Below are positions 7,720 to 35,958 of a stretch of DNA of 35,958 nucleotides, one piece after another. Both the position numbers and the translations under genes were made by a program. Numbering within the stretch: the first letter of the stretch is position 1; each line of letters opens with the position of its first letter. The notes beneath the pieces are model-generated. The model made no database searches and was not told where the DNA came from. It worked only from the letters and a program-made list of their open reading frames with translations. Source of the stretch: a virus; IMG/VR virus record IMGVR_UViG_3300031949_000004, positions 158,224 to 194,181 of that record; one strand, written 5' to 3'.

Positions 7720-7721
7720 CC

Positions 7722-20597: not shown

Positions 20598-20610
20598 TCC
20601 CGCTGAGACC

Positions 20611-20997
20611 ATGAACAATCGCCGACCACATCCGTTCATCTACGACCACGAGTGGGTCGACGACTGCGCTACCTGCCCGTTCGACCACGCCTGGCCCCGT
20701 GGTGACCGCGAACGCCACTGCCGCAAGTGCGGCATCACACCCCACCGTGCGCGTGACCGCCAGGACGACATTGCCTTCGAGGCATGTCCCATGCGCGAGG
20801 TAAGCAGGTGCCGAAAATGTGGGAAGATAGCCCCTATATCAGGCGACAGCTCTCCTGAATACAGCCTATGCACCCTCTGCCAACACCCTCACGCTCTCCA
20901 CTTCAACACGGCGACCGAGGCGGTCGAGGCCATACGGGACATCAACGCGGGGAAACCTCCCGAACCTCCCTCTAAGCGGGACAAGAGACCGTCGTGA
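20611..20997 (+). CDS. Cys-rich zinc-finger-like protein (128 aa)
   Basis: Several CxxC pairs (CATCPF.., CRKCG, CRKCGK, CTLC). Confidence 0.5.
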   Translation: MNNRRPHPFIYDHEWVDDCATCPFDHAWPRGDRERHCRKCGITPHRARDRQDDIAFEACPMREVSRCRKCGKIAPISGDSSPEYSLCTLCQHPHALHFNTATEAVEAIRDINAGKPPEPPSKRDKRPS

Positions 20998-21032
20998 ACC
21001 TGTCCCCCGACCTGCCGTGATATACTTACACC

Positions 21033-21713
21033 ATGCTAGTCGCCTGGCATGCGATGGAAAAAGGCAAGTTCCTCTCGGGAGCACGCTGGCACGCCAAGAT
21101 CGGCCCCTGCACGCTCATCGTCGGCGAGGTTGACCCCTTCGTCAAAAGCGACCTCTGGCGCGAGCACCACCGCGACGGGGAAACGCTCTACAGCTACGAG
21201 ATCTGCATCTACGACCTCAAGGCTCAACCCATCGGCAAGGATATCTTGGCCTCCGGCACCATCAGCGACAGCTCCCGCGACCCTCAAGCCAACGCCGTGA
21301 AAGCCCGCGTGGTGGCCATCGCTCGCGCCAACCCACGCTGCAAACGCCCCCACCGGCAGCTCCAGTCGCCCTCCCCAGAACTGATGACTTGGCTCTCCGA
21401 GCTGATCATGAAGACCATCACACGTGCCTACGAAGTGTGGCACGAACGAACTGAATACTGGAAGGCGAACGCCTCAAAACTAAACCTTGGATCTACAAAC
21501 CCGTATCACGAACCCGTCGTCACTGTAGGCAACCTGCTGGCAGAAGTGGAAACCCACAGCATCAGTGACGATTGGTGGAACAACAACCCACGACGACGAC
21601 GAACCGCTATCGAGAGCGCGGTCAACAAGCTCGTGAAACAAGGACACCTAACGATATCGACAGCCTACGACCGCCGGCAAGATCGCGAAGTCAAGGCGCT
21701 CTCGCCAACCTAA
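21033..21713 (+). CDS. hypothetical protein (226 aa)
   Basis: Last gene of the rightward block. Its last about 9 codons and the following 20 bp are duplicated at 22566-22610. Confidence 0.5.
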   Translation: MLVAWHAMEKGKFLSGARWHAKIGPCTLIVGEVDPFVKSDLWREHHRDGETLYSYEICIYDLKAQPIGKDILASGTISDSSRDPQANAVKARVVAIARANPRCKRPHRQLQSPSPELMTWLSELIMKTITRAYEVWHERTEYWKANASKLNLGSTNPYHEPVVTVGNLLAEVETHSISDDWWNNNPRRRRTAIESAVNKLVKQGHLTISTAYDRRQDREVKALSPT

Positions 21714-21730
21714 CCGGGTGAGCTAACGAC
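21687..21730. repeat. direct repeat R1 (about 45 bp, about 85% identical to 22566-22610)
   Basis: GAAGTCAAGGCGCTCTCGCCAACCTAACCGGGTGAGCTAACGACG compared with GAAGTCAAGGCCCTCTCGCCAACCTAACCGGTCGAGCTAGCAACGG. Confidence 0.7.
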
Positions 21731-22024
21731 GAGTGACGAAACCCCTCCGCACCAAGCCATCAACTCGTCGTAGTTAAACTTGTCGCCCAGAGCCTCGCGA
21801 ATCGTAATCTTCTCCGTCTTGTCGAACTCCAAGACCGCGACGTTGTAGAGCAGAACGTGCCTCATATTCCGCGCCGGCATCATCGGCACAACGGCCGACC
21901 TAACCCACTCACTAAGCTGTGATGATAAGCCAAAACCGAAGATGATGGCAGTTCTTCGTCTTCGATTATACTTCTTGGCCCTCAACAGGTTCTTGAATCG
22001 GTCCAGCAAACAACGCAGTATCAT
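21710..22024 (-). pseudogene. chimeric ORF or gene fragment: novel AT-rich-encoded N-terminus fused to a copy of the C-terminal 40 aa of the 22994-23545 protein
   Basis: Positions 21750-21850 are about 85% identical to 23042-23143. Positions 21853-21889 match the 3' end of gene 19995-20597 (20558-20594). Confidence 0.35.
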
Positions 22025-22199
22025 CTATGTAACGAATGACACCGTTGATGAGCAGAGTATCTATCTGAGTACCATTTCCTCGAAAAGCTTGTACGACCGT
22101 TGTCTGACCACTCGTGTGCAACTTCGAGCGATAAAAGTACCATCCAGCTACCGTAGGTAACTCCCTCGTCCACACCAATTCCCCTTTGGCGTTCTTCAT
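21966..22199 (-). CDS. small hypothetical protein (77 aa) encoded in the AT-rich insert
   Basis: Ribosome-binding site AAAGGAAG before the ATG. Protein-like sequence (MKNAKGELVWTRELPTVAGWYFYRSKL..). Local GC about 45%. Confidence 0.35.
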   Translation of the reverse strand: MKNAKGELVWTRELPTVAGWYFYRSKLHTSGQTTVVQAFRGNGTQIDTLLINGVIRYIDDTALFAGPIQEPVEGQEV

Positions 22200-22214
22200 T
22201 GCTTCCTTTCATGC

Positions 22215-22421
22215 CTATCCGGTTGACACCCCATTCGGTTTAATTGAGTCTTTAACCATCAGGATACCGTACCCAGCGATGACCATTAGGACTATCGCGA
22301 CAAGGTTCGTTTCCCTCGCAGGCAAGACAGTCGCCACAATTATCGCAGAAATCCTCTCCACAAATTGGACTCGTTTCCACTTCCTCGGTAGAAACGATTT
22401 TACTCTTGTTATCGGTGACAT
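22215..22421 (-). CDS. small hydrophobic protein (68 aa) in the AT-rich insert
   Basis: A copy of the conserved upstream element lies at 22473-22490. No obvious ribosome-binding site. Confidence 0.3.
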   Translation of the reverse strand: MSPITRVKSFLPRKWKRVQFVERISAIIVATVLPARETNLVAIVLMVIAGYGILMVKDSIKPNGVSTG

Positions 22422-22472
22422 ATCTAAGCATGTCTTCGTTCGCTTTCTTTCCCTGTTGATTTGATGGTGGTT

Positions 22473-22490
22473 ATCAAATGGATAAGCATG
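22473..22490. promoter_or_regulatory. variant copy of the conserved leftward-block upstream element (ATCAAATGGATAAGCATG)
   Basis: The 26 bp TGGTGGTTATCAAATGGATAAGCATG parallels TGGTGGTTGTCAACCGGATAAGCATG at 26995-27020. Confidence 0.45.
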
Positions 22491-22552
22491 CTTCCTTTCC
22501 TACTCTACCAGTTCTTGTCGCCTGTACCTTTCACAGAAAAACAATCGTGAAG

Positions 22553-22963
22553 TCAAGGCCCTCTCGCCAACCTAACCGGTCGAGCTAGCAACGGGCAACG
22601 AAGCCCCTCCGCGCGTTTGTCGGGCTCCCCTAGACGCAACACCCCATCGTCGCCTTCGATGATCTTCGTGTCGTGTGGAAGACACGGCATCAGGTGCTCA
22701 GGATTTCTCAGGTGCCACACAGCGTGCCCGATCCAAACCGGCTCGAAATTCGGATTGCTGCGCACTTCATCCATATCCCGAGGACGCGCGCCTGTTCTTG
22801 GATCCTCATAGACTTGATGACACCCGCGAATCGCGTCGGCCAATTTAGTTATCTCATCGGCGGAGCATTCCATCGCAACTTCCCTGACGTGCTGTCCGTG
22901 CTTCTTGTAGGACACGAATCTCACCTGACCAAATGCCAACCCGACCACCTCGTTTATTCTCAT
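22553..22963 (-). CDS. hypothetical protein (136 aa), lower GC; its body is absent from the duplicated copy at 21687-21850
   Basis: The C-terminal 18 codons lie in repeat R1'. An HNH-like reading was considered and rejected. Confidence 0.45.
   Translation of the reverse strand: MRINEVVGLAFGQVRFVSYKKHGQHVREVAMECSADEITKLADAIRGCHQVYEDPRTGARPRDMDEVRSNPNFEPVWIGHAVWHLRNPEHLMPCLPHDTKIIEGDDGVLRLGEPDKRAEGLRCPLLARPVRLARGP
22566..22610. repeat. direct repeat R1' (partner of 21687-21730)
   Basis: See R1 at 21687-21730. Confidence 0.7.
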
Positions 22964-22993
22964 GGAAGCACCCTCGTTGCTCAGTCGTGCCTG

Positions 22994-23545
22994 TCAACCA
23001 GCCGAACCAAGTACGGACTCCGGAGCCTCTGCGCGCAAGCTCATCAACTCGTTGTAGTTGAACTTGTCACCCAGGGCCTCGCGAATCGTGATCTTTTCCG
23101 TCTTGTCAATCTCCAGGACCGCACCATTGTAGAGCAAGACGTACCTGGGTAACGCCAAGCTACCAGTCACGAACAGCTTCCCCGTCTCGGTGATCTTGTA
23201 CTTGCCAGCCTTACCACCGTCATCCCGCTTCTCGCCCTTGGCCTCGACAAGCCCCCAGTAGCGAAGCTTCTGGTACTCCCGCGACCGCAACACCGACACC
23301 AGCCCGTGCTTCGCGAGCAGGCGGGGCACGTCGATGAAACCTGCCTCGTCGGCCTCACTCGACAGCCGATGAAGACAGATGAGCGAGTAGGCCATGGCGC
23401 GGTTGAGCTTGCGCCTGTAGACCTTCGCCACCTGGTTGCAGCACGGGCAAATCGCTCCGGCCGGCGCATTCGCGCTCACCCAGGCCCTCGCCTCGACGAG
23501 CGTGGTGGTCATGCCCGGTAACGTCATGGTGTCAAACCGCTTCAT
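22994..23545 (-). CDS. hypothetical protein (183 aa) with CPCC motif and possible winged-helix region
   Basis: First gene of a coupled leftward chain. Its 3' 110 bp are duplicated at 21750-21850. Confidence 0.55.
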   Translation of the reverse strand: MKRFDTMTLPGMTTTLVEARAWVSANAPAGAICPCCNQVAKVYRRKLNRAMAYSLICLHRLSSEADEAGFIDVPRLLAKHGLVSVLRSREYQKLRYWGLVEAKGEKRDDGGKAGKYKITETGKLFVTGSLALPRYVLLYNGAVLEIDKTEKITIREALGDKFNYNELMSLRAEAPESVLGSAG

Positions 23546-23820
23546 GACGAACCTCCCGCTGTCTCCCAGGACAACGACAGAACGAAATCACGGGCACCGT
23601 GCCAGCGCAGAACGTCTTCCCTGGCCTCCGCGAGCAGGGCGCCGAGCGTCCGAGCGCCGCAAACCCGCGACTCGGAGAGATCATGCCCGGCACAGCCTTC
23701 CACCAGCATGGCATGCGTGCGCTCGGCCACGGAAATTCGCTGCTCCACCAACCCGAGCACCTCCTCCCTACCGCGCGCATAGATCTCCCCGACCTCCCCT
23801 TGCACCAGGGCCTCGATCAC
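23542..23820 (-). CDS. hypothetical protein (92 aa)
   Basis: ATGA overlaps at both ends (23542-23545 and 23817-23820). Confidence 0.4.
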   Translation of the reverse strand: MIEALVQGEVGEIYARGREEVLGLVEQRISVAERTHAMLVEGCAGHDLSESRVCGARTLGALLAEAREDVLRWHGARDFVLSLSWETAGGSS

Positions 23821-24059
23821 GACTCTCCCCCAACTGGGAAGTCAAGCATCAGCTTGCTCAGCCCGCGCAAGAGGCGTGACGACCGCACCCTTGCCCGGAC
23901 GTAGATCCCTCGCGCTCGAAGCCGGATCTCCGGCGATGCCTTAGCCATCTCCAGCAACATGGCAGCACGCTTCTCTGTGGCCTTCGCAGTCACAAGCGCC
24001 ACGCTCATGGCGTGAGCAATTCTCTTCAAGGACGGTTGTTCGCTGCCAACGATAACCAT
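23817..24059 (-). CDS. hypothetical small protein (81 aa)
   Basis: Ribosome-binding site GGAGG 4 nt before the ATG at 24059. The track start at 24101 has no ribosome-binding site. Confidence 0.45.
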   Translation of the reverse strand: MVIVGSEQPSLKRIAHAMSVALVTAKATEKRAAMLLEMAKASPEIRLRARGIYVRARVRSSRLLRGLSKLMLDFPVGGES

Positions 24060-24102
24060 TGATGCCTCCAGTTCTCCAGTTCTCACAGTTCCAGATCTCA
24101 TC

Positions 24103-24492
24103 CTACACCCGTGGGCCGCCTTGTCCAGAAACAGGCTTCTGGCGCTTCAGCAAGTTGGGACCTGGCGAATTCATGTCGGGCAACGTCACGGCAATAAGCC
24201 GCGACCGCTCGCACTGCCTCGCGCACCACCGATTCATGCGCGGGGCGTCCTTCTCGTCGAGCCAAACATCGCTAGGCTTAGGATCGCCACCCTCTTCGAT
24301 GGTAACCGTCGCTCCCGGCCCCGGCGCCGTACCCAGCAACGCGTCGCCGAGGAAGACGTAGTCATCGACATCCTTCGAGAAATGATGCTTCGGACGACCA
24401 TCGATTCCCCAAGCCTTGTTGCACCGACCGTCACACACGAGCACGCGCGGCTGCCCTAGAAACAAGATCGACTTGGCCAGCATCATAGGCAT
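24103..24492 (-). CDS. hypothetical protein (130 aa) with CDGRC motif
   Basis: Ribosome-binding site GGAGGAAG before the ATG at 24492. The upstream part of track ORF 24103-24705 is Arg/Gly-rich non-coding-like. Confidence 0.5.
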   Translation of the reverse strand: MPMMLAKSILFLGQPRVLVCDGRCNKAWGIDGRPKHHFSKDVDDYVFLGDALLGTAPGPGATVTIEEGGDPKPSDVWLDEKDAPRMNRWCARQCERSRLIAVTLPDMNSPGPNLLKRQKPVSGQGGPRV

Positions 24493-24494
24493 CG

Positions 24495-24803
24495 TCACTT
24501 CCTCCCCTTCGTGAAGGTGAACGTGGCCTCGTAGGTTTCGTTGAAACCAGGCTTGTCGTACGCAACCTTCCAGCCTGCCCGCTCGTACACGCTCATGACA
24601 TCGAGCAGACCACGATCGAAGACAGCCTGGCGAGAGATCTTGAGCCGCTCGGCGATCCGCTTGACGGCCTCGTTCTGCCCGACCACCGCCTCCCCATCGC
24701 TCCAATTCTCGGTGATGAGCCCATCGAAGATCTCGATCACCACCGAAGGGATCTCGCGAGCCTTGGCCTTCTCGACGCTCGCTGGCGACAACGGTTTGCG
24801 CAT
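24495..24803 (-). CDS. small helix-turn-helix DNA-binding protein (102 aa)
   Basis: VKRIAERLKISRQAVFDRG resembles a sigma region-4 / LuxR-type helix-turn-helix. Ribosome-binding site GGGGAGGA. Confidence 0.5.
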   Translation of the reverse strand: MRKPLSPASVEKAKAREIPSVVIEIFDGLITENWSDGEAVVGQNEAVKRIAERLKISRQAVFDRGLLDVMSVYERAGWKVAYDKPGFNETYEATFTFTKGRK

Positions 24804-25237
24804 CAGTCGTCCTCCCCCAAAGCGATCCCCAGCTTCTTGCCGAAATCCTCCCGCAGGCCTTCCATCATTGCATGAAAGATCTCGAAGTGATCCCCCAGTT
24901 TTTCCTTGAGAAGCCTACGAGCAGCACTGAGGACCAGTAGATCCCACTGCTCGTGAAACCTCCGCATGGTCTCCTCGAACGGCAAGGCCACGCCATTGAC
25001 GGAAAACACAATCTGTGCCTTCCGGCGCATGTCCCGCCCCGCCTCGCCGGGCAACCCGAACGCCCGAGTAACCAGATCGCCACCATTGTCACGATCTAGA
25101 GCAGCCATCGCGGCGCACAGGATAAAGTTCACGAAGCTCTCGAACGAATCGTCGTTCAGCCGGGCCTCGATGAACTTCTGCACGTCGACCAGGCAACCCA
25201 ACTCGTCCACTTCCTTGTTCGCATTGCTTGACATCAT
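24803..25237 (-). CDS. hypothetical protein (about 145 aa)
   Basis: ATGA overlap with the upstream gene. Ribosome-binding site GGGTGG. Confidence 0.5.
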   Translation of the reverse strand: MMSSNANKEVDELGCLVDVQKFIEARLNDDSFESFVNFILCAAMAALDRDNGGDLVTRAFGLPGEAGRDMRRKAQIVFSVNGVALPFEETMRRFHEQWDLLVLSAARRLLKEKLGDHFEIFHAMMEGLREDFGKKLGIALGEDD

Positions 25238-25545
25238 TCCACCCAACCCGTCGGCTTCCAGGGCAAACGCTCGTCGTCGTAACCCGTGATCTGCGTGGCT
25301 GTGAAAGCCAGACCACCCCAGAGTGCCGCGAGTATTTCCGCCTTCGTGTGATGGCCGTACAAGATCACGTGCTCGGGAAACCCAGGATGCATCTGAATCT
25401 GGAGAGCAAGATTCTTCAACCGTTCGTAATCGATACTACTCCAGGTGCCGCCCGACCGATGCAAGAGCGTCATCTTAAGCGACTTTCGAGCATCGACAGT
25501 CCTGCGAAACATCATAGCAGCAATCGTTGCATCTTCCTCTGACAT
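25234..25545 (-). CDS. hypothetical protein (104 aa)
   Basis: Internal ATG with a GGAAGCGAGGGGA ribosome-binding region. The track start at 25692 overlaps the upstream gene. Confidence 0.45.
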   Translation of the reverse strand: MSEEDATIAAMMFRRTVDARKSLKMTLLHRSGGTWSSIDYERLKNLALQIQMHPGFPEHVILYGHHTKAEILAALWGGLAFTATQITGYDDERLPWKPTGWVE

Positions 25546-25562
25546 GGATCCCCTCGCTTCCT

Positions 25563-26036
25563 TCACGTGTAAATCTTCACGCCCGACGGGCTCGGTAGAT
25601 CCGTCCGCAACACCTCGCGCGCCTTCTCCAAGAGAACCGTGCGCGACCACGACGAGAAAGCCAGCCCCTTGAGCCTGGCGGCGGCAAAGCACATCTCCCG
25701 CTCCTCGCTGTTGAGCTGAAGATGTGTCGAGGTGCGAGGATCGCTCACGCGCGGCCGTCCTCGCCCGCGAACCCTACCCAGGACGCGCGAGCACACGGAA
25801 AGCTGACCGGGCGAGAGCTTGACCCCCCGCTCGGCCAGCTTCGCGACAAGCTGCGCTAGCTCGTAGACACCATCATCTTTCACCCCCGCCATCAAGATCT
25901 CTTGCATGACGAGTGTGGCACCCTCGTACACCGCCACCTTCACGCCACCAGAGATCGGCGAAACGCGAACCTTCGGTGTCACCACCGCCGGAGCCTTGGA
26001 CTTCTGCTTGCGCACCTTGGTTTTCTGCTTTGCCAT
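25563..26036 (-). CDS. putative ribbon-helix-helix (CopG/MobC-like) DNA-binding protein with basic N-terminus (157 aa)
   Basis: C-terminal GRGRPRVSDPRTSTHLQLNSEEREMCFAAARLKGLAFSSWSRTVLLEKA matches the ribbon-helix-helix pattern (beta-strand, then LxxEExxxL..A...G.S.S). Confidence 0.5.
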   Translation of the reverse strand: MAKQKTKVRKQKSKAPAVVTPKVRVSPISGGVKVAVYEGATLVMQEILMAGVKDDGVYELAQLVAKLAERGVKLSPGQLSVCSRVLGRVRGRGRPRVSDPRTSTHLQLNSEEREMCFAAARLKGLAFSSWSRTVLLEKAREVLRTDLPSPSGVKIYT

Positions 26037-26157
26037 AACCTTCTCCTGTCGACGACCTATTGCAACCCATCAACTAGAGATCGGCAAGGACGACGAGGCA
26101 CCGGCTTTGGATCTCTGCCTGCGCACCTTCGTCTTTGCCATAACCTTCTCCCGTAAA
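25992..26157. repeat. imperfect tandem duplication, about 109-bp period, of the ribosome-binding site plus first about 17 codons of gene 25563-26036; creates a 22-codon upstream ORF
   Basis: 25992-26051 is about 85% identical to 26101-26157. The minus-strand copy reads GGAGAAGGTTATGGCAAAGACGAAGGTGCGCAGG...TAG. Confidence 0.7.
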
Positions 26158-26178
26158 ATCCTCCGCCCCAGGCACCAA

Positions 26179-26628
26179 CTACGGCTTAACCGCCCAGAGC
26201 ACCGCCGGTCTGCCAGCACCGTTCGTCACGAGCCGATCGGTGGCCTTGCCCCTGCGCTTCAAGTGCTTCAGGCAAGCATTGATCCTCTTGGCCGAAACCT
26301 TGTGACCCAGATGCCCGGAGATCACCTGACGGTTCATGGGCCGCCGATGCCGGCGCATGAATGACCAGACCTTCTCGCCCAACTCAGGGATCGTCATCGA
26401 CTTCACCGCCGGACTTGCGGCTTTCGGTCCTTCCCTCCTCGGGCGCTTCAAAATCTTCTCCAGGACCGTCTTGACACCTTCGACCTTCATCGGCCTGGCA
26501 AGCTTCTTGACCAACTTCACCGGCTTCGGAACCTCCACGAACACCGGCACCAAGCCCAGCAGACGGAAGAACAGGACGATCCTCTCGACGAAAAGATCCA
26601 CGGGCGACGAAACAACGTTCTTGGACAT
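26179..26628 (-). CDS. putative winged-helix DNA-binding protein (149 aa)
   Basis: Ribosome-binding site AAGGAG. The C-terminal segment TIPELGEKVWSFM..VISGHLGHKVSAKRINACLKHLKRRGKA is winged-helix-like. The conserved element sits 28 nt upstream. Confidence 0.5.
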   Translation of the reverse strand: MSKNVVSSPVDLFVERIVLFFRLLGLVPVFVEVPKPVKLVKKLARPMKVEGVKTVLEKILKRPRREGPKAASPAVKSMTIPELGEKVWSFMRRHRRPMNRQVISGHLGHKVSAKRINACLKHLKRRGKATDRLVTNGAGRPAVLWAVKP

Positions 26629-26657
26629 GACAGACTCCTTTCGACAACAGTTCAAAC

Positions 26658-26675
26658 CATGCTTATCCGGTTAAC
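26658..26675. promoter_or_regulatory. conserved upstream element (CATGCTTATCCGGTTAAC), 28 nt upstream of the 26628 start
   Basis: One of 5-6 copies of TTGTCAACCGGATAAGCATG and its reverse complement in the leftward block. Confidence 0.5.
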
Positions 26676-26977
26676 GACCCAGAGCCGCTTTTGCACGTGT
26701 TGCAGATGTCGCGTTCGCCGTGTGTCATAATAACGCGGCAACGGGCACACACCTCTTCATTCGTTTTCACCTTCCGTTTCCGTTTACGCAAGCAGCGCAG
26801 AATGGCCACCTTCGCCGCAAAGGTGATCTCCTGCATCTCGACATTGCTTAATGGAGGGGCAGGCGGGGAAAGTCCGACATCAGCCATTACCTCGCCTTGG
26901 CGAATTAGGTGATTTGGCAAACAGCTCCACGACACCCGCACCAAGAACTCTTCATGTGCCTCTGGCGCTTTCGGCAT
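26663..26977 (-). CDS. small protein with C-terminal zinc-ribbon (104 aa)
   Basis: CARCRVIMTHGERDICNTC. Ribosome-binding site GGGAG. Confidence 0.45.
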   Translation of the reverse strand: MPKAPEAHEEFLVRVSWSCLPNHLIRQGEVMADVGLSPPAPPLSNVEMQEITFAAKVAILRCLRKRKRKVKTNEEVCARCRVIMTHGERDICNTCKSGSGSLTG

Positions 26978-27002
26978 TTTTAACTCCCATTGATATTGTG
27001 GT

Positions 27003-27046
27003 GGTTGTCAACCGGATAAGCATGGTTCAAACCATATCTATCCGGT
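27003..27046. promoter_or_regulatory. conserved element in inverted-repeat configuration: GTCAACCGGATA-N20-TATCCGGTTGAC
   Basis: Perfect 12-bp arms at 27003-27014 and 27035-27046. Located 27 nt upstream of the 26977 start, overlapping the 3' end of 27027-27248. Confidence 0.5.
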
Positions 27047-27248
27047 TGACCCATTCTTTCACTTCTGCCAGATAGCCTTGCACCATGGCATCCGGACCTT
27101 CCACAGTGATACTGTATTCAGTCGTCAACCAACCACCATCATCAATACTACTAAAGCTAAGCCCTCGTACTTGTGCCGCTTTTTTCAATTGAAAAATGGC
27201 TTCCTTCCGAACGAGAGCCCCGGCAGAAAATGAAAATGTGACTTTCAT
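27027..27248 (-). CDS. small hypothetical protein (73 aa), low GC
   Basis: ORF with coding-like composition. Last gene of the AAA+ operon. Confidence 0.4.
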   Translation of the reverse strand: MKVTFSFSAGALVRKEAIFQLKKAAQVRGLSFSSIDDGGWLTTEYSITVEGPDAMVQGYLAEVKEWVNRIDMV

Positions 27249-27290
27249 AGCTATTATCCTATCGAGTTGGCGGAGAAAGCAATCTGAGCC

Positions 27291-27764
27291 TTATTGCAAC
27301 CCCTCCGGCTTCTTGCCCATCATCACCGGAACAGCAAAGGTAGTGATGGTTGCCTCGGGCTGCCCCGACTCGCGGCACATCTCTTCGTGAGCACCGAGAA
27401 AGGCTTCCATCGTTGCCAACGATACGGGACCATCCAACCGGATGTGGTTACCAGGCTTGAACGCCAGGCGCGCATAAACCAGGAAACGCGTTGGTGTTCC
27501 CTCTATCACACCTTCCGAAGTATCATCACCAACATCCAGAGCACGGTAGAGATCGTCTGTGACAGGGATCCACACCTCGACAAGACTCTGCGTGTCATAG
27601 AAGAGAAATGCAAGGCGAACCGCATCCGACCGTTCTGGGCGAGTCAGGTACAGCACCGAAAAGGCATCCGACTCCATCATGAGACCGCTTCGCCATCCCT
27701 CACTACGGGCACCATCGCCTATGCAATGAATCTTCCAAAGCTCCGCGTTCGATTCTGTTTCCAT
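27291..27764 (-). CDS. hypothetical protein (158 aa) downstream of the AAA+ ATPase
   Basis: First ATG of track ORF 27291-27779. Globular sequence. Confidence 0.5.
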   Translation of the reverse strand: METESNAELWKIHCIGDGARSEGWRSGLMMESDAFSVLYLTRPERSDAVRLAFLFYDTQSLVEVWIPVTDDLYRALDVGDDTSEGVIEGTPTRFLVYARLAFKPGNHIRLDGPVSLATMEAFLGAHEEMCRESGQPEATITTFAVPVMMGKKPEGLQ

Positions 27765-27817
27765 GTTCGACGATCTCAATCTTGAACGACCTGGATTTCT
27801 CTGTCCAGAAAATACCC

Positions 27818-29566
27818 CTATATCTTACGGAAAACCTCAGATCCCGAAAGTGCTCCACCCTCCCGCTCGTCCGGCACAACCCGAAGGTCGAGAAATCGCG
27901 ATGCACTCCGGAGCAGATCGATGTCGATCCTGTCCGTCTTCTTCGCGGTCGCCAGACGCTTGGCCAGCTTGAGCAGGTTCTTGATGTTCCTGCCCGAAAG
28001 CTTCCCCAGCGGATGCGTATGCAGCTCCCGGAGCGTCCCGTCAGCGAACACAATACGAAACTGATTGGCAAGGATCTGCCAGATCTCAATCGCCTCCACC
28101 ACGGTCGGCAGATTGTACCGGATCCAAGCCGTCGCCCTCGACATGATGGCATCGTCGATGATCGTCGCCCGGTTGCTCGTCAAGAACAAAATCCCTCGGT
28201 AGTATTCGAGCACGCGAAGGAACACACCCACGATGGCATTCTGCTGCACGTCGTTGCCACGCTCGTGGACATAGACATCCGCCTCGTCGATAAGCAAAAT
28301 CGCCCGCCAGCGCGCCGCCCGTTCGAGCACCTGACGAAGATGCTTCTCCAGAACTTGCTCGTTCGTGCCGAGCTGGGAGCACTGCACGACGTAAAGAGGC
28401 TTCTCGATCGTCTCGGAGAACACCTCGGCGGTGAGCGTCTTCCCGGTCCCTGGAGGTCCGGTTGCGATGATGATGGTCCCGCCCGTCTTGCCCGCCACGA
28501 TGTCGTCAAGTTGATCTACCGAACCCGACACCAGGATATGGATCAAGTCCTTCGTGTCGGTCGGCAACACGAGCTTGTCGAACAACGACTTGTCGTAGGC
28601 ATACGGTTCTAGGTTCCGGACATGAATGTCAACGTACTCATGCTTGTCCAGATCGAAGACCTGCACGTAGGGATGAAGTGGCAGGGAAACGGTGTACTTC
28701 TCATCATCATCGTCTTCGTCTTTGGCACTCCAGAACTTGCTGGAGACGATGCCACTATCAGCACGGTTATGCCGAGAGCGCGACCGCCCATCCTCATCAT
28801 CCTCATCATCCTCGTCCGCCAGATCGTCCATCACGACCTTCGCCGCCATGCCCTCACGCTCCATCGCGATGATACTCGCACCCCAACGATGCGCATAGTT
28901 GGAGATAGCCTGACCAACGGCGCGGAACTGATCACCCGTCCGTGGCTGGTACGACTTGTAGAGGGCAACGTCATCCTCGTACCTCGCCACGGCCTCCTGG
29001 GTCTCCAGGAAGTAACCCTTCTCCTCAAGCAACTCCACCACGTTGCAACCCTTGTCCAGATCCTTCCGATGCCACACCAGAGCGTCGTGCATGTTCTCCC
29101 CTCGCGAAAACCCCTTCAGCGAAACGCTCGTGCTCGCCGGATGCTCACCGCCGCGACTGTGCTCCGCCTCGTGAAATTCGATCTTGGAAACGAAATGGGG
29201 GACCACATGGCCATCCGACAGCTCGTGAAAGAGCCACTTGCGCGGACTCGGCGCGATGTACGTCTTGAGCACGGCCGCAAGAGCTTCGAGCGTCTTGATT
29301 CCCTTGCCCTTCGGATCTGCCTTCAAGGCAACGTAGGTGTTCGCCTTGCGAAACGCCCCAAGAAAAATCGTTTCACTCTTGCTCTCCTCCTTGAGCCACG
29401 CGACCAGGTTGTACAGATCACCGGGCGCCAGCTCTTCGAGCGACAATCGAATCCGACGCTCGTCGCCGCCATAATGCTGCTCCAGCTTGAGGGCGATGAG
29501 CTTCGACTTGCAACCGATATCCTTGACGAACCTCTGGAGGTGACTCTTCGCGATGTCGATGTTCAC
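27818..29566 (-). CDS. classic-clade AAA+ ATPase with unrecognised 350-aa N-terminal region (582 aa, GTG start)
   Basis: Walker A GPPGTGKT. Walker B ILLIDEAD. Sensor-1 FLTSN followed by a second-region-of-homology-like NRATIIDDAIMSRATAWIRYNLP. Acidic low-complexity linkers (DEDDEDDEDG, DEDDDDEKY). Ribosome-binding site GAGGAG 7 nt before the GTG. Confidence 0.8.
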   Translation of the reverse strand: MNIDIAKSHLQRFVKDIGCKSKLIALKLEQHYGGDERRIRLSLEELAPGDLYNLVAWLKEESKSETIFLGAFRKANTYVALKADPKGKGIKTLEALAAVLKTYIAPSPRKWLFHELSDGHVVPHFVSKIEFHEAEHSRGGEHPASTSVSLKGFSRGENMHDALVWHRKDLDKGCNVVELLEEKGYFLETQEAVARYEDDVALYKSYQPRTGDQFRAVGQAISNYAHRWGASIIAMEREGMAAKVVMDDLADEDDEDDEDGRSRSRHNRADSGIVSSKFWSAKDEDDDDEKYTVSLPLHPYVQVFDLDKHEYVDIHVRNLEPYAYDKSLFDKLVLPTDTKDLIHILVSGSVDQLDDIVAGKTGGTIIIATGPPGTGKTLTAEVFSETIEKPLYVVQCSQLGTNEQVLEKHLRQVLERAARWRAILLIDEADVYVHERGNDVQQNAIVGVFLRVLEYYRGILFLTSNRATIIDDAIMSRATAWIRYNLPTVVEAIEIWQILANQFRIVFADGTLRELHTHPLGKLSGRNIKNLLKLAKRLATAKKTDRIDIDLLRSASRFLDLRVVPDEREGGALSGSEVFRKI

Positions 29567-29617
29567 GGCAATTCTCCTCGATCGATTGTTCCTCGTCTAC
29601 CCACTCAACAACACCTG

Positions 29618-29872
29618 CTAATCGAAACGCCTCTCACACACCAGGTCGAATTCGTCTAACCCTTCCGTTTCAGACGATATCGGATGCAACTGCACGCATC
29701 GCGGATCAACAGCCTCACACTCTGCTCGCGAACCGTACCAGTATCCAACATGTGCATGATTGCCATATCCGCTTCCACCATCATCGTCCGTATAAACAAC
29801 CGCGCGGCAACCTCCAGCATCGTATTCGACATACTTTTTCAATACCTGCATCATCCCTGTCCTCGCGAACAT
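29618..29872 (-). CDS. small hypothetical protein (84 aa), first gene of the AAA+ operon
   Basis: The conserved element sits 25 nt upstream of the ATG. Confidence 0.4.
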   Translation of the reverse strand: MFARTGMMQVLKKYVEYDAGGCRAVVYTDDDGGSGYGNHAHVGYWYGSRAECEAVDPRCVQLHPISSETEGLDEFDLVCERRFD

Positions 29873-29898
29873 CGCGCCCCTCTAGCTAGCAAAGAAAG

Positions 29899-29916
29899 CA
29901 TGCCTATCCGGTTGAC
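29899..29916. promoter_or_regulatory. conserved upstream element (CATGCCTATCCGGTTGAC)
   Basis: See 26658 and 27003. Located 25 nt upstream of the 29872 start. Confidence 0.5.
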
Positions 29917-29927
29917 GACCATTCAGC

Positions 29928-30137
29928 CTATCTGAGCCGGTAATGCCTACTCAGATGCAGTCGGATAACTTCCTCGACGGTCGACGATGGGCAACCTTTG
30001 TCGTGGGCGCCGAAAGCCCTGAAGAACTTGCGGGCAATCGCAATAGTTACGCCTGTTTCCTCGGCAGCGTCCTTTGTCGAGGCGCCATTTGCCCAAAAAT
30101 GCCCGAGCTTGCGAATGATAGGTCCGTGCGTTCTCAT
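29928..30137 (-). CDS. small helix-turn-helix protein (69 aa)
   Basis: GASTKDAAEETGVTIAIARKFFRAFG is a helix-turn-helix similar to IS3 OrfA / terminase-small / excisionase-type N-terminal domains. Ribosome-binding site GAGAGGAG. Confidence 0.5.
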   Translation of the reverse strand: MRTHGPIIRKLGHFWANGASTKDAAEETGVTIAIARKFFRAFGAHDKGCPSSTVEEVIRLHLSRHYRLR

Positions 30138-30167
30138 CGTTGTTCTCCTCTCGAATCACTTGGGATT

Positions 30168-30185
30168 GTCAACCGGATAAGCATG
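30168..30185. promoter_or_regulatory. conserved upstream element (GTCAACCGGATAAGCATG), 28 nt upstream of the 30137 start
   Basis: Full 20-bp context GGGATTGTCAACCGGATAAGCATG. Confidence 0.5.
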
Positions 30186-30253
30186 AAAGAAAGCTCGCGG
30201 ATTCTGCTCTTCGCGCCCAACCTTGGCCTCCAGCTCCGCCACTCGCCAGGCAT

Positions 30254-30520
30254 CTACAAGACTCTTCGAGATCGCCCTCTCGAACAACGCCACCGGATCC
30301 ACGGCAAGCGCCCTGAAGAGCCTCCGCGCGTAACCGCCAAATCAATAACCTTCTCCCGATACACTGCCCGAACTTCATCCGAACACACCAACCAACACGG
30401 CGGTATCTCACCCTTGATCCGACTTTCGACCCGCATCAAGTCGTGCGCCGCCGCATCGAGCGCGGTCAAGATCTTCTTCTCCTCGACGGTGAATGTTACG
30501 GTCGCCTTCGGCATCGTCAT
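30254..30520 (-). CDS. hypothetical small protein (about 88 aa; C-terminal third may be non-coding read-through)
   Basis: Ribosome-binding site AAGGAGG. GTGA/ATG coupling to the upstream gene. The C-terminal 25 aa are Arg/Gly/Ser-rich and junk-like. Confidence 0.35.
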   Translation of the reverse strand: MTMPKATVTFTVEEKKILTALDAAAHDLMRVESRIKGEIPPCWLVCSDEVRAVYREKVIDLAVTRGGSSGRLPWIRWRCSRGRSRRVL

Positions 30521-30548
30521 CACGGCTTCCCTCCTTCCGGCTTCGACA
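30519..30548. repeat. 30-bp gene-junction module (C-terminal codons + ribosome-binding site + GTG start), copy 1; copy 2 at 30702-30731
   Basis: TCACGGCTTCCCTCCTTCCGGCTTCGACAA compared with TCACGGCTTCTCTCCTTCAGGCTTCGACAA. This gives two adjacent proteins the same ..SKPEG(G/E)KP C-terminus. Confidence 0.7.
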
Positions 30549-30705
30549 ACCTGGAATCCATCGAATCACGCAGAGGCATCACCTGATGCTCGGGTTGACC
30601 AACCCCAACACACTTCACACCGCCCGGCCCCACGTGCGGCTCCAACCGCCGACTCTTGGAGAAACCCACCACGCGCCCGCACCACGGACACTTGACGGTG
30701 TTCAC
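30520..30705 (-). CDS. small zinc-ribbon protein (61 aa, GTG start)
   Basis: CPWCG...C..G. GTGA overlap with the upstream stop. Confidence 0.4.
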   Translation of the reverse strand: MNTVKCPWCGRVVGFSKSRRLEPHVGPGGVKCVGVGQPEHQVMPLRDSMDSRLSKPEGGKP

Positions 30706-31046
30706 GGCTTCTCTCCTTCAGGCTTCGACAAATCCACGCCCCGCGATCCCACCCGGCGCAGCATACTGGCGGTCGCCGGAAACTCAAACATGACGGTGTC
30801 GGCCGCCTGCAAGCAGGTCACCTCCGCCAAGACACGCGCCTTCAACCGCCGCAAGATCTCGTGCTTGAGAGACTGACGAACCTGGTGGTTGAAATCGTCC
30901 GCGCCCGCCTTCCTCGCGCCCTCCAGGCACAGCACCGTGTACGACTCGACCAACTCCTCGTCCGCCATCACAGCAAGCGATTTGCTCACCAGATCGCCGC
31001 TCGCTGCCGTCACGAAGCTCGCAGCCTTATCCGTGGACACCATCAC
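30702..31046 (-). CDS. hypothetical protein (114 aa)
   Basis: GTGA/ATG coupling to the upstream GHKL gene. Confidence 0.45.
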   Translation of the reverse strand: MMVSTDKAASFVTAASGDLVSKSLAVMADEELVESYTVLCLEGARKAGADDFNHQVRQSLKHEILRRLKARVLAEVTCLQAADTVMFEFPATASMLRRVGSRGVDLSKPEGEKP

Positions 31047-32542
31047 GATTCCTCCCCACCAAAGAGACTGGGCGACTCCATCGCCACCCCCGCAGCCTCC
31101 GCGCCCAGGCGACAGAGAGACTGATGGTAGGCGCTGTCGAGATGCTGCCCCCAGTGGTGCCCCAACTCATGAATCAACAACTCGACCTGCGCTTTCCAGT
31201 TGATCTTGGTAACGAGCCACCTGTGACCAAGCAACCCCACGTTGAAGTAGAGCTGCCCGGAATCCTCTCCAAACCGCGAATAGGCCGCCCGGAACTTCCA
31301 GCCACGATCGGGCGTGAAAGCCACCCGCACAGCGAGACCCGCGCACCGGCTGGCGAAACACTTGACGAAGCTCTCGAATACCACCATCGCCAGCGTCCAC
31401 TGCTCGCGAGCGATGAGTTCCAGCGGCTCTCCGCCCGGCGAGAAGGGCTTCGGGCTCGGCGTCACCTGCCCGGCTGGCTTGAGCACGCCCATCTGGCGAA
31501 TGTTTGCCCACGCATCGGCCGAAAACGTCCCGCCCGGTACCACGGTGTACCCCTGCGCCACGGCCATGTGCGTCCCCTCGCGGTCGCTCGGATCCGAGAT
31601 CACGGCCCGCTCACCGAAGCGCGCCGTCACGATCGTCTCGACCGTCCTCGGCGCCACCACCTTCGAGCCGAGCACCGCACTCACCCAGGGCTGCTTCGCC
31701 AGCTCACTCGACAACGGCAGCTTGCGCATCACAACCTCGTTGAGCACGGCGACCAACAAGGCCAACAGGTACGAGGGCTTCACACCGTCGCGCTCCATGC
31801 TGAGCGGCACCTTCTGACCGATATCGATGTGCCAGGGAACGCCGGCCGGAAGATCCACCACAGGGATCCCCATCTCGTAGAGCTTCGCGCTTTCGTCCGC
31901 GAATCGATGGTAGAGAGAAACCCCGGTCTCCCGCTTGAACTCCCGAAGATTCCCGCCAGCATCGGCCTCGACGGTCGGCAACTGCATCCGGAAGGACAAC
32001 ACGATCTTCGGCGCCGGAATGGCGACACCATTCAAGTAGGTTCGACACGTGGACGGCGGGATCACATAGGAAATCTCGCGAATCATCACCTCGTACTCTT
32101 CGCGCGTCATCCGAACCTGACCAAAAAACTGAGTCCCCGACGATCGGCACTTGCGACGATTGATCTGCCGTCCTTCCGTCGTGAAGGACACCGTGCCCCT
32201 GGTCGTCGAGATCTCCGCCCGCTCACACAAGGCAAGCACCAACTTCTCGCCGAGATTGAAGCGGCCCCGCAGCTCGGGCGCGACCTTCTTGGCCGACGGA
32301 GCGAAGAGCGTAAATGCGTGAGTCAGATCTGAAAAACCGTCCGGATCCTCGTCGGTCACACGAAGAAAAATCTCGGGCTTGCCCGTCACGGGCTCCGTCA
32401 TGATCCGCACCGTACCCGCCGCCTTGCAGTCCCAGGCGTTTTGCAGAAGCTCGTGCAGAATGAAAACCTTGCCCTTGCGCTCGACGAGCTGGGCAAGCCC
32501 CGCCTTGTCGACCTCGAACCACGACGCTTGCTTTTTTGCCAT
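31043..32542 (-). CDS. GHKL/Bergerat-fold ATPase-like protein with C-terminal HExxH motif (499 aa)
   Basis: N-box FILHELLQNAWD fits ExxxNAxD. G-box-like TDEDPDGFSD and RGRFNLGEK. C-terminal IHELGHHWGQH is SprT- or ImmA-like HExxH. Ribosome-binding site GGGAGA before the ATG at 32542. Confidence 0.65.
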   Translation of the reverse strand: MAKKQASWFEVDKAGLAQLVERKGKVFILHELLQNAWDCKAAGTVRIMTEPVTGKPEIFLRVTDEDPDGFSDLTHAFTLFAPSAKKVAPELRGRFNLGEKLVLALCERAEISTTRGTVSFTTEGRQINRRKCRSSGTQFFGQVRMTREEYEVMIREISYVIPPSTCRTYLNGVAIPAPKIVLSFRMQLPTVEADAGGNLREFKRETGVSLYHRFADESAKLYEMGIPVVDLPAGVPWHIDIGQKVPLSMERDGVKPSYLLALLVAVLNEVVMRKLPLSSELAKQPWVSAVLGSKVVAPRTVETIVTARFGERAVISDPSDREGTHMAVAQGYTVVPGGTFSADAWANIRQMGVLKPAGQVTPSPKPFSPGGEPLELIAREQWTLAMVVFESFVKCFASRCAGLAVRVAFTPDRGWKFRAAYSRFGEDSGQLYFNVGLLGHRWLVTKINWKAQVELLIHELGHHWGQHLDSAYHQSLCRLGAEAAGVAMESPSLFGGEES

Positions 32543-32661
32543 GACCAGTTCTCCCAGTTCTCTACGTACCGTACCGCCGTTCAAATTACCTGTCCAGAAA
32601 AATCCATTTCTACGTCACAACACCTTGACGACCTAGCTCGAACTCTCTGACTGCTGCTTCA

Positions 32662-33069
32662 TCAATCTCCCTGGTCCACGGGCTTCCTCACCAGGACGAA
32701 CCTGTCGGAAGCGTCATCCCATTCGTACAGCCAGAACTTCGGGTAGTGCGTGATGTCCCCGGCGAACGCCAGCTCAACGTTCGTCCGGGTGAAGATCGCC
32801 TTGTCGAGTTCCTCCGGCTTGTTCTTCCCCCAAGCAGGATGCACGTACTCCTCATCCCACTCATCCGGATGAACGATGCTATCGATCGTATGCAGATCCT
32901 TCGCGCGCAACCCCAACGAATGCATGATCGACGTGGCCCCGCGAACGATGTCCCGCCATCGACTCTGATACTTCCGCTTCCCCGGCTTCCCCACCATGAG
33001 GATCCGGACCACGATAAACGGCATCTCGCTGATCAAGTTCAAGTAATGCCAGGGCTGTGGCTTGTCCAT
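32662..33069 (-). CDS. hypothetical protein (135 aa)
   Basis: Ribosome-binding site GGGAGGA 6-9 nt upstream of GTGATG. Confidence 0.5.
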   Translation of the reverse strand: MDKPQPWHYLNLISEMPFIVVRILMVGKPGKRKYQSRWRDIVRGATSIMHSLGLRAKDLHTIDSIVHPDEWDEEYVHPAWGKNKPEELDKAIFTRTNVELAFAGDITHYPKFWLYEWDDASDRFVLVRKPVDQGD

Positions 33070-33081
33070 CACATGTCCTCC

Positions 33082-33552
33082 CTATCGTTTTAGTGATCCA
33101 GATACCGGCGGCACATCGCGACAAGCCTTACCCGAACCACCAGTCGCATGAAACGGACAACAGAGTGGATAAACAACCTTCCCTGCCTTCTCCTCCCGCA
33201 GTCTCCTCGCCCGCGCGAAGAAAGCCTTCGCCGTCGCCGCATGGTGCGCCGCCGAGATTTCCAGCTCGCAAATCGCGCAGTAGTCCTTGGCGAACTCCCG
33301 TTCGCGATTGCAGGCCACCGTCACGGTGACATCACGAACATCCTGGCAACCCTTACAAGCCCGGCGCTCTTTGTACCGGCTGAGCTGCCCGTCCTCTTCC
33401 CGCCCGCAACCCGAACACGACTTGTGGAACGCCCCCGTCACGGCATCCGTGATCTTGACCGTCACGCGCGCCTCGGGGACATCACAACGATACGAACAAG
33501 AGCGCGCATCCTTGTCGACGATCCACCGCTTGGGTTGATTGATGAGCGCCAT
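33082..33552 (-). CDS. Cys-rich hypothetical protein (156 aa), multiple CxxC
   Basis: Internal ATG 2 nt after the upstream stop. The upstream part of track ORF 33082-33951 is Arg/Gly-rich antisense junk. Confidence 0.45.
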   Translation of the reverse strand: MALINQPKRWIVDKDARSCSYRCDVPEARVTVKITDAVTGAFHKSCSGCGREEDGQLSRYKERRACKGCQDVRDVTVTVACNREREFAKDYCAICELEISAAHHAATAKAFFARARRLREEKAGKVVYPLCCPFHATGGSGKACRDVPPVSGSLKR

Positions 33553-33554
33553 CA

Positions 33555-33923
33555 CTACCTCGTCGGATCGAGCCGCTCGCGATCTTCGTCCCGGCTCCCA
33601 CCCTCGCCCTCGCCCTCGCCCTCCTGACCTTCCTCGTCGAATCCACCTTCGAGAAGGTTCCAAACCGCCCGAGCATCGCGCGCCTGCCGCTCGAACTGCT
33701 CCTTCAACCGCACCGCCATGACCCGCTCGCCGCTCTCGGACGGTGACAACGGGGACTCCTCGGACTTCCGATCGTGCTCCGTGATGATGTCGACGAGGCC
33801 CTTCACGTCCTCGTCGAAACGGCTCGCCGCCACTCCCAGAGCGTGCGTGATCACGCCCATCTGGCTGCTCGACAGCTCCCGCCTCCGCGTATCCTCGTCG
33901 TCGATGATGATGAGTCTTGCCAT
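33555..33923 (-). CDS. hypothetical acidic protein (122 aa), first gene of the leftward block
   Basis: Ribosome-binding site GGAGGAA before the ATG at 33923. Contains EGEGEGEG from a GAGGGC hexamer repeat at 33601-33624. Confidence 0.45.
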   Translation of the reverse strand: MARLIIIDDEDTRRRELSSSQMGVITHALGVAASRFDEDVKGLVDIITEHDRKSEESPLSPSESGERVMAVRLKEQFERQARDARAVWNLLEGGFDEEGQEGEGEGEGGSRDEDRERLDPTR

Positions 33924-35123
33924 GTTCGTTCCTCCAGTTCGCACAGTTCACTGACAGCGCCTACAGTCTACACAAATCCGAATAAGCTGGCCAGAAAAAA
34001 CGCGGAAAATACCTGAACGTGTTATCAGTGTCGATAACCGGCACCCCGAGCCCACACCACCGCACCGAGAGCCCCCCAATACCGCGCCCGAGCACGCTTC
34101 TCACCGCAGCCGCACGGCATAAAATCGGAAACCCCTCGACATCGTTCAACAAACCACCACCAAACATTCAAACACCCTCCGACAGTAATCGCCGCTACAA
34201 TCCACAACCTAGCGACATCGCACAGGAATCCAGCACATTCTACCACGAAACCGCGTCATTCATCTTACGACGCAGCAGCGTTACGCGTGTAAGTAATTGA
34301 CGGCAATAGTGTTTTAGCAAGAAGGGCGGTTTTCTGCAACGTCCCATCGCCATCAACCCACTGCATTATACTGGCAGGAAAAACCACTAATAATTAATTC
34401 CCAAGCAATATCATCAACTTCTACTCCACCTCTCAACCAGTTTCGAGACCATAATCCCGCCGCACCGTCACATTTGTAACAACCCGGTACGTTACGAGTG
34501 TACCAAACCTCCCAATCTTTTCCTGACCGATTTAATACATGGTTGCCTACATTTCCGTCACACTTCACCACATGCCCCCACCTTTTGCCAATTTGGCAAT
34601 TTGTGACGCAACACAAACGCCGTTTGGCACAACCACCCACCTAGCAATTCCCACTACTTATACCATCGTATGACAAAAATTGTCATTGATGTGTGACGGC
34701 AAAACTGACAGACCACGCTGACTCACTAAATCAGGACATCTCCACTCCTTTTCCTACACCACCACACATCTCCCACCCCGACTTTGACACTCCCGCGTCG
34801 AAACCGGACAGAAATGTCGCGAAAATCGCGTCAATTCGCAAACTGAAAATGACTACATGAACCTACTTCACAAATGTTCAGTGACTACTCCTACATGTCG
34901 CACTACCCTCCGGCCTCCCTTGAACCTATCCCACTCAACCCGTTAACCTCCCACTAACTCCCACTCACTACTACACAAGCCTACTCCTACATCCGCTGTC
35001 CCATGCTACACTATCCCACTTACACCCTTACCCCCAGCCCTCCCCCCTCCTCCCCGCCACCCGCCCAACCCAGCGCGCCATCCCCCAGCCTCCGGCCCAG
35101 GCCACGCCCCACGGTCCCCCCGC

Positions 35124-35175
35124 CAACCGCCAACCGCAAACCACCAACCGCAAACCACCAACCGCAAAACTCCAC
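35124..35175. repeat. 3.5 tandem copies of a 14-bp unit CAACCGCAAACCAC in a G-depleted region
   Basis: CAACCGC|CAACCGCAAACCAC|CAACCGCAAACCAC|CAACCGCAAAACTCCAC. Confidence 0.7.
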
Positions 35176-35958
35176 CATCCCAACCCCACCAGCCTTCCCC
35201 CGGACCATTGCACCCCAAAACCCAAACCATTCCAGCCCAGCTCATTCCAGCAGGCAACCTCCAGCCGGCCACCTTCAACGAGACGCCTGCAACCAGCAGC
35301 CCCGCAACTGCACATAACCACTGCGCTTTATCCGCCACAGCCCGGCGCTCCTCCCCCGCCTCGCTCCCCACCGGCCGGGCCTTGGATCCCGGAGCACGAC
35401 AAGCGGGCTCCGGCCCCCTCGAAACACCGCACCCAAGCCGCCTGGCTGGCCCCTGGACGCCCGCCAGCCGGCTCGGGCTGCCCAGATAGCCTGTCCATGG
35501 ATAGGGCCTCTGGGCTCGCGGATAGCGCGCGAGCTGTCTGAAATCGTTGATCTGGGGGGTGGCCGGCGTAGAATACCCTCGCAATGGCCGGAAAAACCGC
35601 ATGGACAGCGTATCGGGATGTAGGCAAATGTGCCGAATCCCGAGATGCGCACCTACGGTTCGGACGGGCTGACGAAACAATGGGGACCGGGAAAAAGTCG
35701 AACGGGCAGCAAAGTGCTGATTTCGCTCGGGTTCTCGGCCGGAGGACGGTCCAAGCCTCCGAAACCGTGATTCGCGACTTCGCGATCATAGCGTTTTCCC
35801 CATCATTTACACGTCAGTCTTTGTCCCACATCGCGCAAGCGACCGTTACCATTAGCGTTTTCTAAAGAAGGACGGTTCCCGTTCTTCAAGAGGGAAAACG
35901 CGGGGGATGACGCAGGTCCGTCTTTTGTCGCTTTTTTCTCTCTTCCTATACCCATGGG

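Follow-up and report, generated by a model that had tools for sequence, protein, structure and literature searches.

Classic-clade AAA+ unfoldases, among them Cdc48/p97/VAT, FtsH, Yta7/ATAD2 and Vps4/spastin, combine AAA modules with double-psi barrel, MIT, transmembrane or peptidase domains, an N-terminal double-psi barrel being followed by tandem D1-D2 AAA rings in Cdc48 and VAT, and carry an SGA motif in the lid and an aromatic-hydrophobic-Gly motif in the pore loop. In Bacillus jumbo phages, the phrog_29662 proteins AR9 BI022_gp082 and PBS1 gp276 are annotated 'ATP-dependent protease' or 'AAA family ATPase', and BCS1-like assembly translocases have been proposed for jumbo phages (PMC7824862). 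We have analysed a gene encoding a 582-amino-acid (aa) AAA+ ATPase in a 35,958-nucleotide stretch of viral DNA (IMG/VR record IMGVR_UViG_3300031949_000004, positions 158,224 to 194,181), referred to as the window, in which the gene lies among open reading frames (ORFs) for proteins of 84, 158 and 73 aa (p84, p158 and p73). Profile and alignment comparisons place the 582-aa protein as a new member of the known but uncharacterised phage family phrog_29662, show a fixed two-part layout in which a private N-terminal domain of ~330 residues precedes one classic-clade AAA+ module, and point to no conserved neighbouring gene or partner. Combined, these results lead us to favour, with moderate confidence, a stand-alone phage AAA+ ATPase acting as an ATP-driven remodelling enzyme, of which the adjacent genes are not machine parts.

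The family assignment rests on nearly the whole length of the protein. The phrog_29662 profile matches residues 81-563 of 582 (E 1.6e-86, 292 bits, profile positions 77-547 of 548), and tblastn detects homologues in the Bacillus jumbo phages PBS1, AR9 and Goe21 which are 35% identical over the same residues, while C-terminal matches are obtained in Rhizobium phages. The AR9 and PBS1 proteins share the N-domain-plus-AAA layout; they differ in that the window phage is high-GC and uncultured and in that the first ~80 residues of its protein lie outside the PBS1/AR9 matches. More than 3800 homologues are present in a large protein database, full-length members being ~550 aa and 45-55% identical, and the best 120 are nearly all 540-600 aa in length and 45-81% identical. 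Phages carrying the family range in size from ~30 kb to more than 500 kb; homologue-bearing contigs reach 548 kb and resemble very large phages, with Ku, HU and long runs of hypothetical genes, and in one Verrucomicrobia genome the homologue has housekeeping genes (PBP, ClpX, YchF) on one side and hypothetical genes on the other. The AAA gene has a dN/dS of 0.15 relative to its homologue in L007, the closest related locus. Megablast of window positions 20000-35958 against phage records gave no match, and literature searches found no relevant characterised phage AAA+ protein of this type.

For the first ~335 residues no match was obtained in Pfam or PDB, in agreement with the sequence-only reading, which had described a classic-clade AAA module joined to a long unrecognisable N-terminal region. 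The region is, however, not unique, as it belongs to an existing full-length phage family. A profile built from the N-terminal 340 residues detects 906 cluster representatives (50%-identity clusters) at E <= 1e-3, nearly all of them proteins of 540-600 aa in which residues 1-330 form the domain; because these hits share the same layout, the N-domain is tied to this ATPase. Thus, by these searches the N-domain is new to Pfam and PDB, yet not unique to the window. The poly-acidic linkers noted earlier are present, as acidic runs at residues 251 and 283, and both N-domain loops keep their acidic composition throughout the family (median D+E fractions 0.44 and 0.42). In structural comparison with the AAA module excluded, the N-terminal model resembles giant-virus 'AAA family ATPase' proteins in BFVD (Klosneuvirus, Terrestrivirus, Homavirus, Hyperionvirus, Mimivirus LCMiAC01), with E-values of 2e-7 to 1e-6, probability 1.00 and query TM-scores of 0.41-0.48 over 270-390 columns. 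Although these 437-757-aa targets are only 10-13% identical in sequence to the model and likewise uncharacterised, the matches suggest that the N-domain-plus-AAA layout may be common to phages and giant viruses.

The C-terminal part of the protein is matched by Pfam AAA (PF00004) at residues 368-480 (E 5.4e-16, 59.7 bits against a cut-off of 21.2), and the fold of the module is nearest to classic-clade members. The motifs by which the module was originally recognised, GPPGTGKT, IDEAD and TSN, begin at residues 370, 426 and 463. No variation is seen among 117 homologues at G370, G373, G375, K376, D427, E428, N465 or R477, all catalytic residues therefore being intact and the AAA+ module predicted to be catalytically complete. 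The second region of homology is degenerate, as had been proposed, a single Arg (R477) remaining in DDAIMSRATA. In contrast to the classic-clade unfoldases, the protein has a single AAA module and is without their double-psi barrel, MIT, transmembrane or peptidase domains, so that neither the N-terminal barrel nor the tandem rings of Cdc48/VAT are present, and SGR replaces SGA in the lid. Pore loop 1 also differs, the QLGT(D/N)E motif replacing the aromatic-hydrophobic-Gly motif of threading unfoldases: GT(D/N)E aligns where VAT has KYYG, with Q398, L399 and G400 invariant and T401 and E403 at least 90% conserved. The P-loop itself is a site of intein insertion. Inteins are located between K376 and T377 (GPPGTGK/T) in five cluster representatives of ~900 aa (P0093, P0113, P0160, P0175 and P0215); these inteins are 340-362 aa long, begin with Cys, end with His-Asn and are followed by Thr, and two of the five have precomputed Hint and homing-endonuclease Pfam domains. 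Intein insertion is the usual mark of a conserved, functionally important site.

The sequence-only reading had likened the layout of p84, the AAA protein, p158 and p73 to that of anti-phage or anti-defence modules; in a module of this kind the small proteins would serve the ATPase as sensors, effectors or adaptors. The four ORFs lie on the minus strand in the order p84, AAA gene, p158, p73, separated by intergenic gaps of 51, 50 and 42 nt, within a region in which every gene from ~21.7 kb to the right window end is on that strand. A terminator scan detected no terminator-like site in 26500-30700, and sigma-70 promoter and terminator scans gave nothing exceeding shuffled controls. Co-transcription of the four ORFs is thus plausible from the common strand, the short gaps and the lack of a terminator-like site between them. 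Conservation does not extend to the arrangement. We compared 84 other loci carrying a homologue of the ATPase (7 obtained through protein look-ups and an initial scan of viral sequences, 6 from species-representative genomes and 71 from viral contigs) by tblastn with all minus-strand window genes: the ATPase was detected in 84 of 84, p84 and p73 in none and p158 in one, L007. The four genes therefore never co-occur elsewhere in this set, an outcome which the earlier reading had itself named as refuting the module. All-versus-all BLASTP clustering revealed no conserved neighbour, the largest family, an SNF2-type helicase in variable position, being present in 8 of the 84 loci. Similarly, phmmer clustering of adjoining ORFs yielded no conserved adjacent family, with singletons accounting for 50/66 upstream and 49/63 downstream ORFs. 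The occasional neighbours are DNA-metabolism genes, encoding SNF2 helicase, 5'-3' exonuclease and DUF932 proteins.

Resemblance to known defence systems is confined to the AAA module. The best defence-library hits, IetA of IetAS (E 6.9e-17) and TRIP13 (E 1.4e-8), could be taken to favour the four-gene module, but both are limited to the generic AAA module. IetA, the best PADLOC and NCBIfam hit, aligns to residues 330-551, its profile stopping short of the N-terminal 330 residues, and the 582-aa protein differs further in being phage-encoded and stand-alone. Membership of IetAS was rejected, as the NCBIfam IteA model scores 51.2 bits against an equivalog cut-off of 510 and covers residues 331-550 only; no model for the IetS serine protease hit any of the 10 proteins scanned (26179-32584), nor was a peptidase Pfam domain detected in them. 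The TRIP13 model is restricted to residues 365-497 and no HORMA or cyclase hit was obtained among the neighbours scanned, in keeping with the earlier dismissal of a TRIP13/HORMA system. A TRIP13-sized ATPase is ~300 aa in length, compared with 582 aa here. A system-specific PADLOC hit was observed in 0 of the 10 proteins, and no PADLOC system model fits the locus.

The individual small genes have separate histories. None of p84, p158 and p73 has a Pfam, PHROG or PADLOC hit, and PDB sequence searches with p158 and p73 returned nothing significant. That p84 is a coding gene is supported by its five homologues, 58-63% identical, in other phage contigs; where these contigs were looked up, the homologues are surrounded by runs of small phage genes, an AAA gene being absent within 5 kb. 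In two of them (L209 and L211), an IS1595-family transposase gene is located immediately upstream of an N6/N4 DNA methyltransferase gene. A search of 5.8 billion proteins with p158 returned only itself and the L007 homologue (64% identity). As the dN/dS of 0.22 relative to this single homologue indicates purifying selection, p158 is a real gene, and its retention beside the AAA gene in L007 speaks for the four-gene module, as do the common strand, the short gaps and the lack of a terminator-like site between the genes. An unrelated 308-aa gene occupies the p158 position in L008, and p158 appears from these comparisons to be lineage-specific. No p73 homologue was detected in the phage collection, PDB or any fetched locus.

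L007 and L008 are the two closest relatives (81% and 77% identity, respectively), and in both, homologues of the 513-, 114- and 89-aa genes of the window immediately precede the ATPase gene. The 608-bp segment containing p84 (29579-30186) is replaced by ~25 bp in L007 and the 629-bp segment containing p73 (26658-27286) by ~28 bp, and both lie outside the L008 homology. The segments being missing from both relatives, we regard them as recent insertions, and alignment of the three loci identifies p84 and p73 as recent accessory insertions adjoining the IS1595-type cassettes described below. Degenerate second cassette ends (<=5 mismatches) were not found near p73 or p84. Adjacency in phage accessory regions can mislead, as two of the three apparent partners came by insertion.

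A stand-alone remodelling ATPase would operate as follows. The protein would assemble into a ring via its AAA module, with the Arg finger acting in trans, and would spend ATP to remodel or dismantle a target recognised by the N-terminal domain. Expression is probably early, as in AR9, in which an annotated early promoter immediately precedes the homologue BI022_gp082, and the protein would accordingly act early in infection. Two early promoters have been reported upstream of g083 in an AR9 dRNA-seq study (PMC5312081), and we infer that g083 is BI022_gp082 from a one-gene numbering offset, the holin being g082 in the paper and gp081 in RefSeq. Early action would make host takeover, counter-defence or replication set-up likelier functions than virion assembly. 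Because the pore loop is non-aromatic and acidic and the N-domain loops are poly-acidic, we speculatively favour a mechanism in which a basic target, such as a nucleic-acid-binding protein, is gripped or pried rather than threaded by aromatic paddles. Several points weigh against this reading. Function, target and ring formation are predictions for every member of phrog_29662; in the absence of an aromatic pore-loop residue, the remodelling mechanism of Cdc48, FtsH and Vps4 is not simply transferable, and the protein could instead be a switch or a loader. The early timing rests on a 35%-identical AR9 homologue and on the gene-number mapping. With respect to the neighbours, fast-evolving small partners could evade BLAST and phmmer clustering, the AAA gene may be co-transcribed here with p84, p158 and p73, and a lineage-specific functional tie may exist between the AAA protein and p158.

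A bolder form of the stand-alone reading, which we consider unlikely, is that phrog_29662 constitutes a pan-viral early AAA+ machine whose N-fold is shared by tailed phages and giant eukaryotic viruses, and whose acidic pore and loops, in place of aromatic pore loops, would remove basic proteins, either DNA-binding or immune, from the DNA of host or virus. If true, such an acidic-pore machine would represent a new mode of host takeover or counter-defence. The family is large, hosts inteins in its P-loop and has a structural echo in giant viruses, yet it has neither a Pfam N-domain nor a solved structure. Biochemical work should be straightforward, as the ATPase needs no conserved partner, and cultured systems are available in PBS1 and AR9.

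To a similarly low degree we would credit a role as chaperone or loader in phage DNA replication, recombination or virion assembly, one example being the BCS1-like assembly translocases proposed for jumbo phages; membership of the BCS1-like group was rejected, with no BCS1_N hit and no fold support. Considerably less probable is the function implied by the PBS1/AR9 annotation, in which the 582-aa protein would be the ATPase half of an ATP-dependent protease, delivering substrates to a peptidase of phage or host origin as FtsH, Lon or ClpX do. Pfam detects AAA-type domains only in the 582 residues, FtsH models, whose cut-offs are 600-1008, give scores of 18 bits and align to the AAA module only, no neighbouring peptidase is conserved and pore loop 1 is without the threading aromatic. 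The 'protease' database label of the PBS1 and AR9 members is misleading and unsupported. The possibility that the gene is a housekeeping FtsH or Cdc48 fragment, which had been raised in advance as a refuting case, was checked and rejected, since scores are far under the cut-offs and the accessory domains are missing. The four-gene module is the least probable of all and is already largely refuted by the missing co-occurrence.

The repeated sequence at the edges of the locus is a finding in its own right. It had been described as a shared conserved upstream element behind which the operon sits, and the repetition is real, the 18-mer GTCAACCGGATARGCATG having 7 matches in the window at <=3 mismatches compared with 0.05 expected by chance. 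It is, however, not an operon element. Read along the minus strand, three pairs of the 18-mer form inverted-repeat ends, each pair associated with a perfect 8-bp direct repeat, and the sequence is accordingly the terminal inverted repeat of IS1595-type cassettes, here termed E1 to E3. A promoter or terminator reading was rejected, as the scans do not rise above shuffles and the transposon-end reading replaces it. L007 retains the empty sites: its homology to the window breaks exactly at the ends of E2 and E3, restarting at 26657 beside a single GTTTGAAC at the E2 site and ending at 30187 beside a single CTTTCTT at the E3 site. A 44-bp palindrome downstream of p73 consists of a solitary cassette end and the E2 end at 27007-27024, and is a by-product of E2 insertion into 8 bp beside the solitary end.

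The same ends are widespread. At least 118 stretches of IMG/VR contigs contain an exact copy of the 18-mer, and for 74 of the 99 candidate end pairs in them the two copies of the flanking duplication agree at 7 or all 8 positions. Sixty-four distinct elements with perfect 8-bp duplications fall into the size ranges 235-1284 bp and 1653-2636 bp. The long elements encode an ORF of ~340-350 aa, and the one which was scanned (L057) matches DDE_Tnp_IS1595 (E 6.5e-34) and Zn_ribbon_IS1595 (E 5e-12), autonomous copies with the window-cassette ends thus encoding both domains. No transposase-like sequence is present in the window itself. An 8-bp target duplication is a trait of the IS1595-family element ISApl4 (PMC12561309), and the duplication length of the window cassettes is typical of that family. 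Short elements contain diverse cargo ORFs, several with the DPPY motif typical of DNA methyltransferases, and the transposase-methyltransferase pairing in L209 and L211 matches this methyltransferase-like cargo. The p69 cargo of E3 is helix-turn-helix-like, whereas the E1 ORF and the p104 cargo of E2 are Cys-rich, and no family hit was obtained for any of the three. In the unrelated viral contig L021 (5658-5913), a 256-bp cassette carries as its cargo an ORF homologous to p104 (70% identity); therefore the same passenger gene moves in cassettes of different size.

Mobile insertion cassettes (MICs) are exemplified by MIC231 of Bacillus cereus and the qnr MICs, and the MPME elements of mycobacteriophages provide a phage precedent for such mobile elements. 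Like MICs and the miniature inverted-repeat elements (MITEs) of IS families, the window cassettes are short, have IS-type inverted-repeat ends, carry cargo ORFs and contain no transposase. They differ from these MICs in their location in phage genomes and in the great diversity of their small cargo genes. A limited literature check found no description of this cassette family. IS1595-type cassettes ferrying small cargo between phage genomes are perhaps the more original observation and may deserve a study of their own.

Table 1. Features of the ATPase locus; positions are those of the window unless given as residues of the 582-aa protein.
Feature	Position	Strand	Details
582-aa AAA+ ATPase gene	27818-29566	-	GTG start, GAGGAG 7 nt upstream; phrog_29662 member
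N-terminal region	28562-29566	-	residues 1-335; predicted family-specific; helical sub-domain, beta-rich sub-domains including SH3/Tudor-like barrel
Poly-acidic loops of N-terminal region	residues 247-272 and 280-292		disordered
AAA+ module with lid	27872-28561	-	residues 336-565
Walker A	residues 370-377		GPPGTGKT
Pore loop 1	residues 398-403		QLGT(D/N)E, non-aromatic
Walker B	residues 424-430		D427/E428, in LLIDEAD
Sensor-1	residues 463-465		N465, in TSN
Arg finger	R477		in DDAIMSRATA
Lid motif	residues 524-526		conserved SGR
p84	29618-29872	-	84-aa small accessory gene, unlinked to AAA family
p158	27291-27767	-	ATG start; 162 aa with TTG at 27779; directly downstream of AAA gene
p73	27027-27248	-	73-aa small ORF; C-terminus VNRIDMV encoded by solitary transposon end
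Cassette E1	22210-22490	-	281 bp; target duplication CTTCCTTT (+ strand); cargo ~59-aa Cys-rich ORF (22242-22421)
Cassette E2	26658-27024	-	367 bp; target duplication GTTCAAAC (+ strand); cargo p104 (26663-26977)
Cassette E3	29899-30185	-	287 bp; target duplication AAAGAAAG (+ strand) at 29891-29898 and 30186-30193; cargo p69 (29928-30137)
Solitary cassette end	27033-27050	-	2 mismatches to degenerate consensus; overlaps p73 C-terminus
513-aa gene	31043-32584	-	GHKL/sacsin-like ATPase-fold protein; NCBIfam P_loop_sacsin E 2.6e-4, below curated cut-off

The window belongs to a large phage genome or phage-derived region, as identical window genes are found on contigs 140 kb and 194 kb in length. 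Its plus-strand half encodes a virion protein, and the DNA to the left is phage-like, containing SLT, a 1404-aa protein and an MNT/HepT pair (NTP_transf_2 and HepT-like; L206, 6298-7081), with a faint AbiEii hit on the same 59-kb contig. Rfam and tRNA scans of the window gave zero matches, and a look-up of the ORF at its right end (35006-35680) returned no record. The 513-aa protein has the GHKL/sacsin-like ATP-binding motif ELLQNAWDC, and homologues of its gene are present upstream, on the same strand, in 4 of the 84 loci (L007, L008, L137 and L139), in two of which the ATPase is just 40-44% identical. Among these loci, it appears to be the only neighbour whose position upstream of the ATPase persists outside the closest relatives.

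Additional repeats are present elsewhere in the window. A perfect 57-bp tandem duplication in two identical copies is located at 20353-20466, near the end of the plus-strand structural block. Direct repeats of 40-155 nt with 74-93% identity are observed at 6282-7831, where they suggest tandemly duplicated paralogous genes around 6.3-7.8 kb, and also between 21682-21862 and both 22544-22612 and 22996-23146. The three minus-strand genes at 21710-22024, 22553-22963 and 22994-23545 apparently have C-terminal ends in common.

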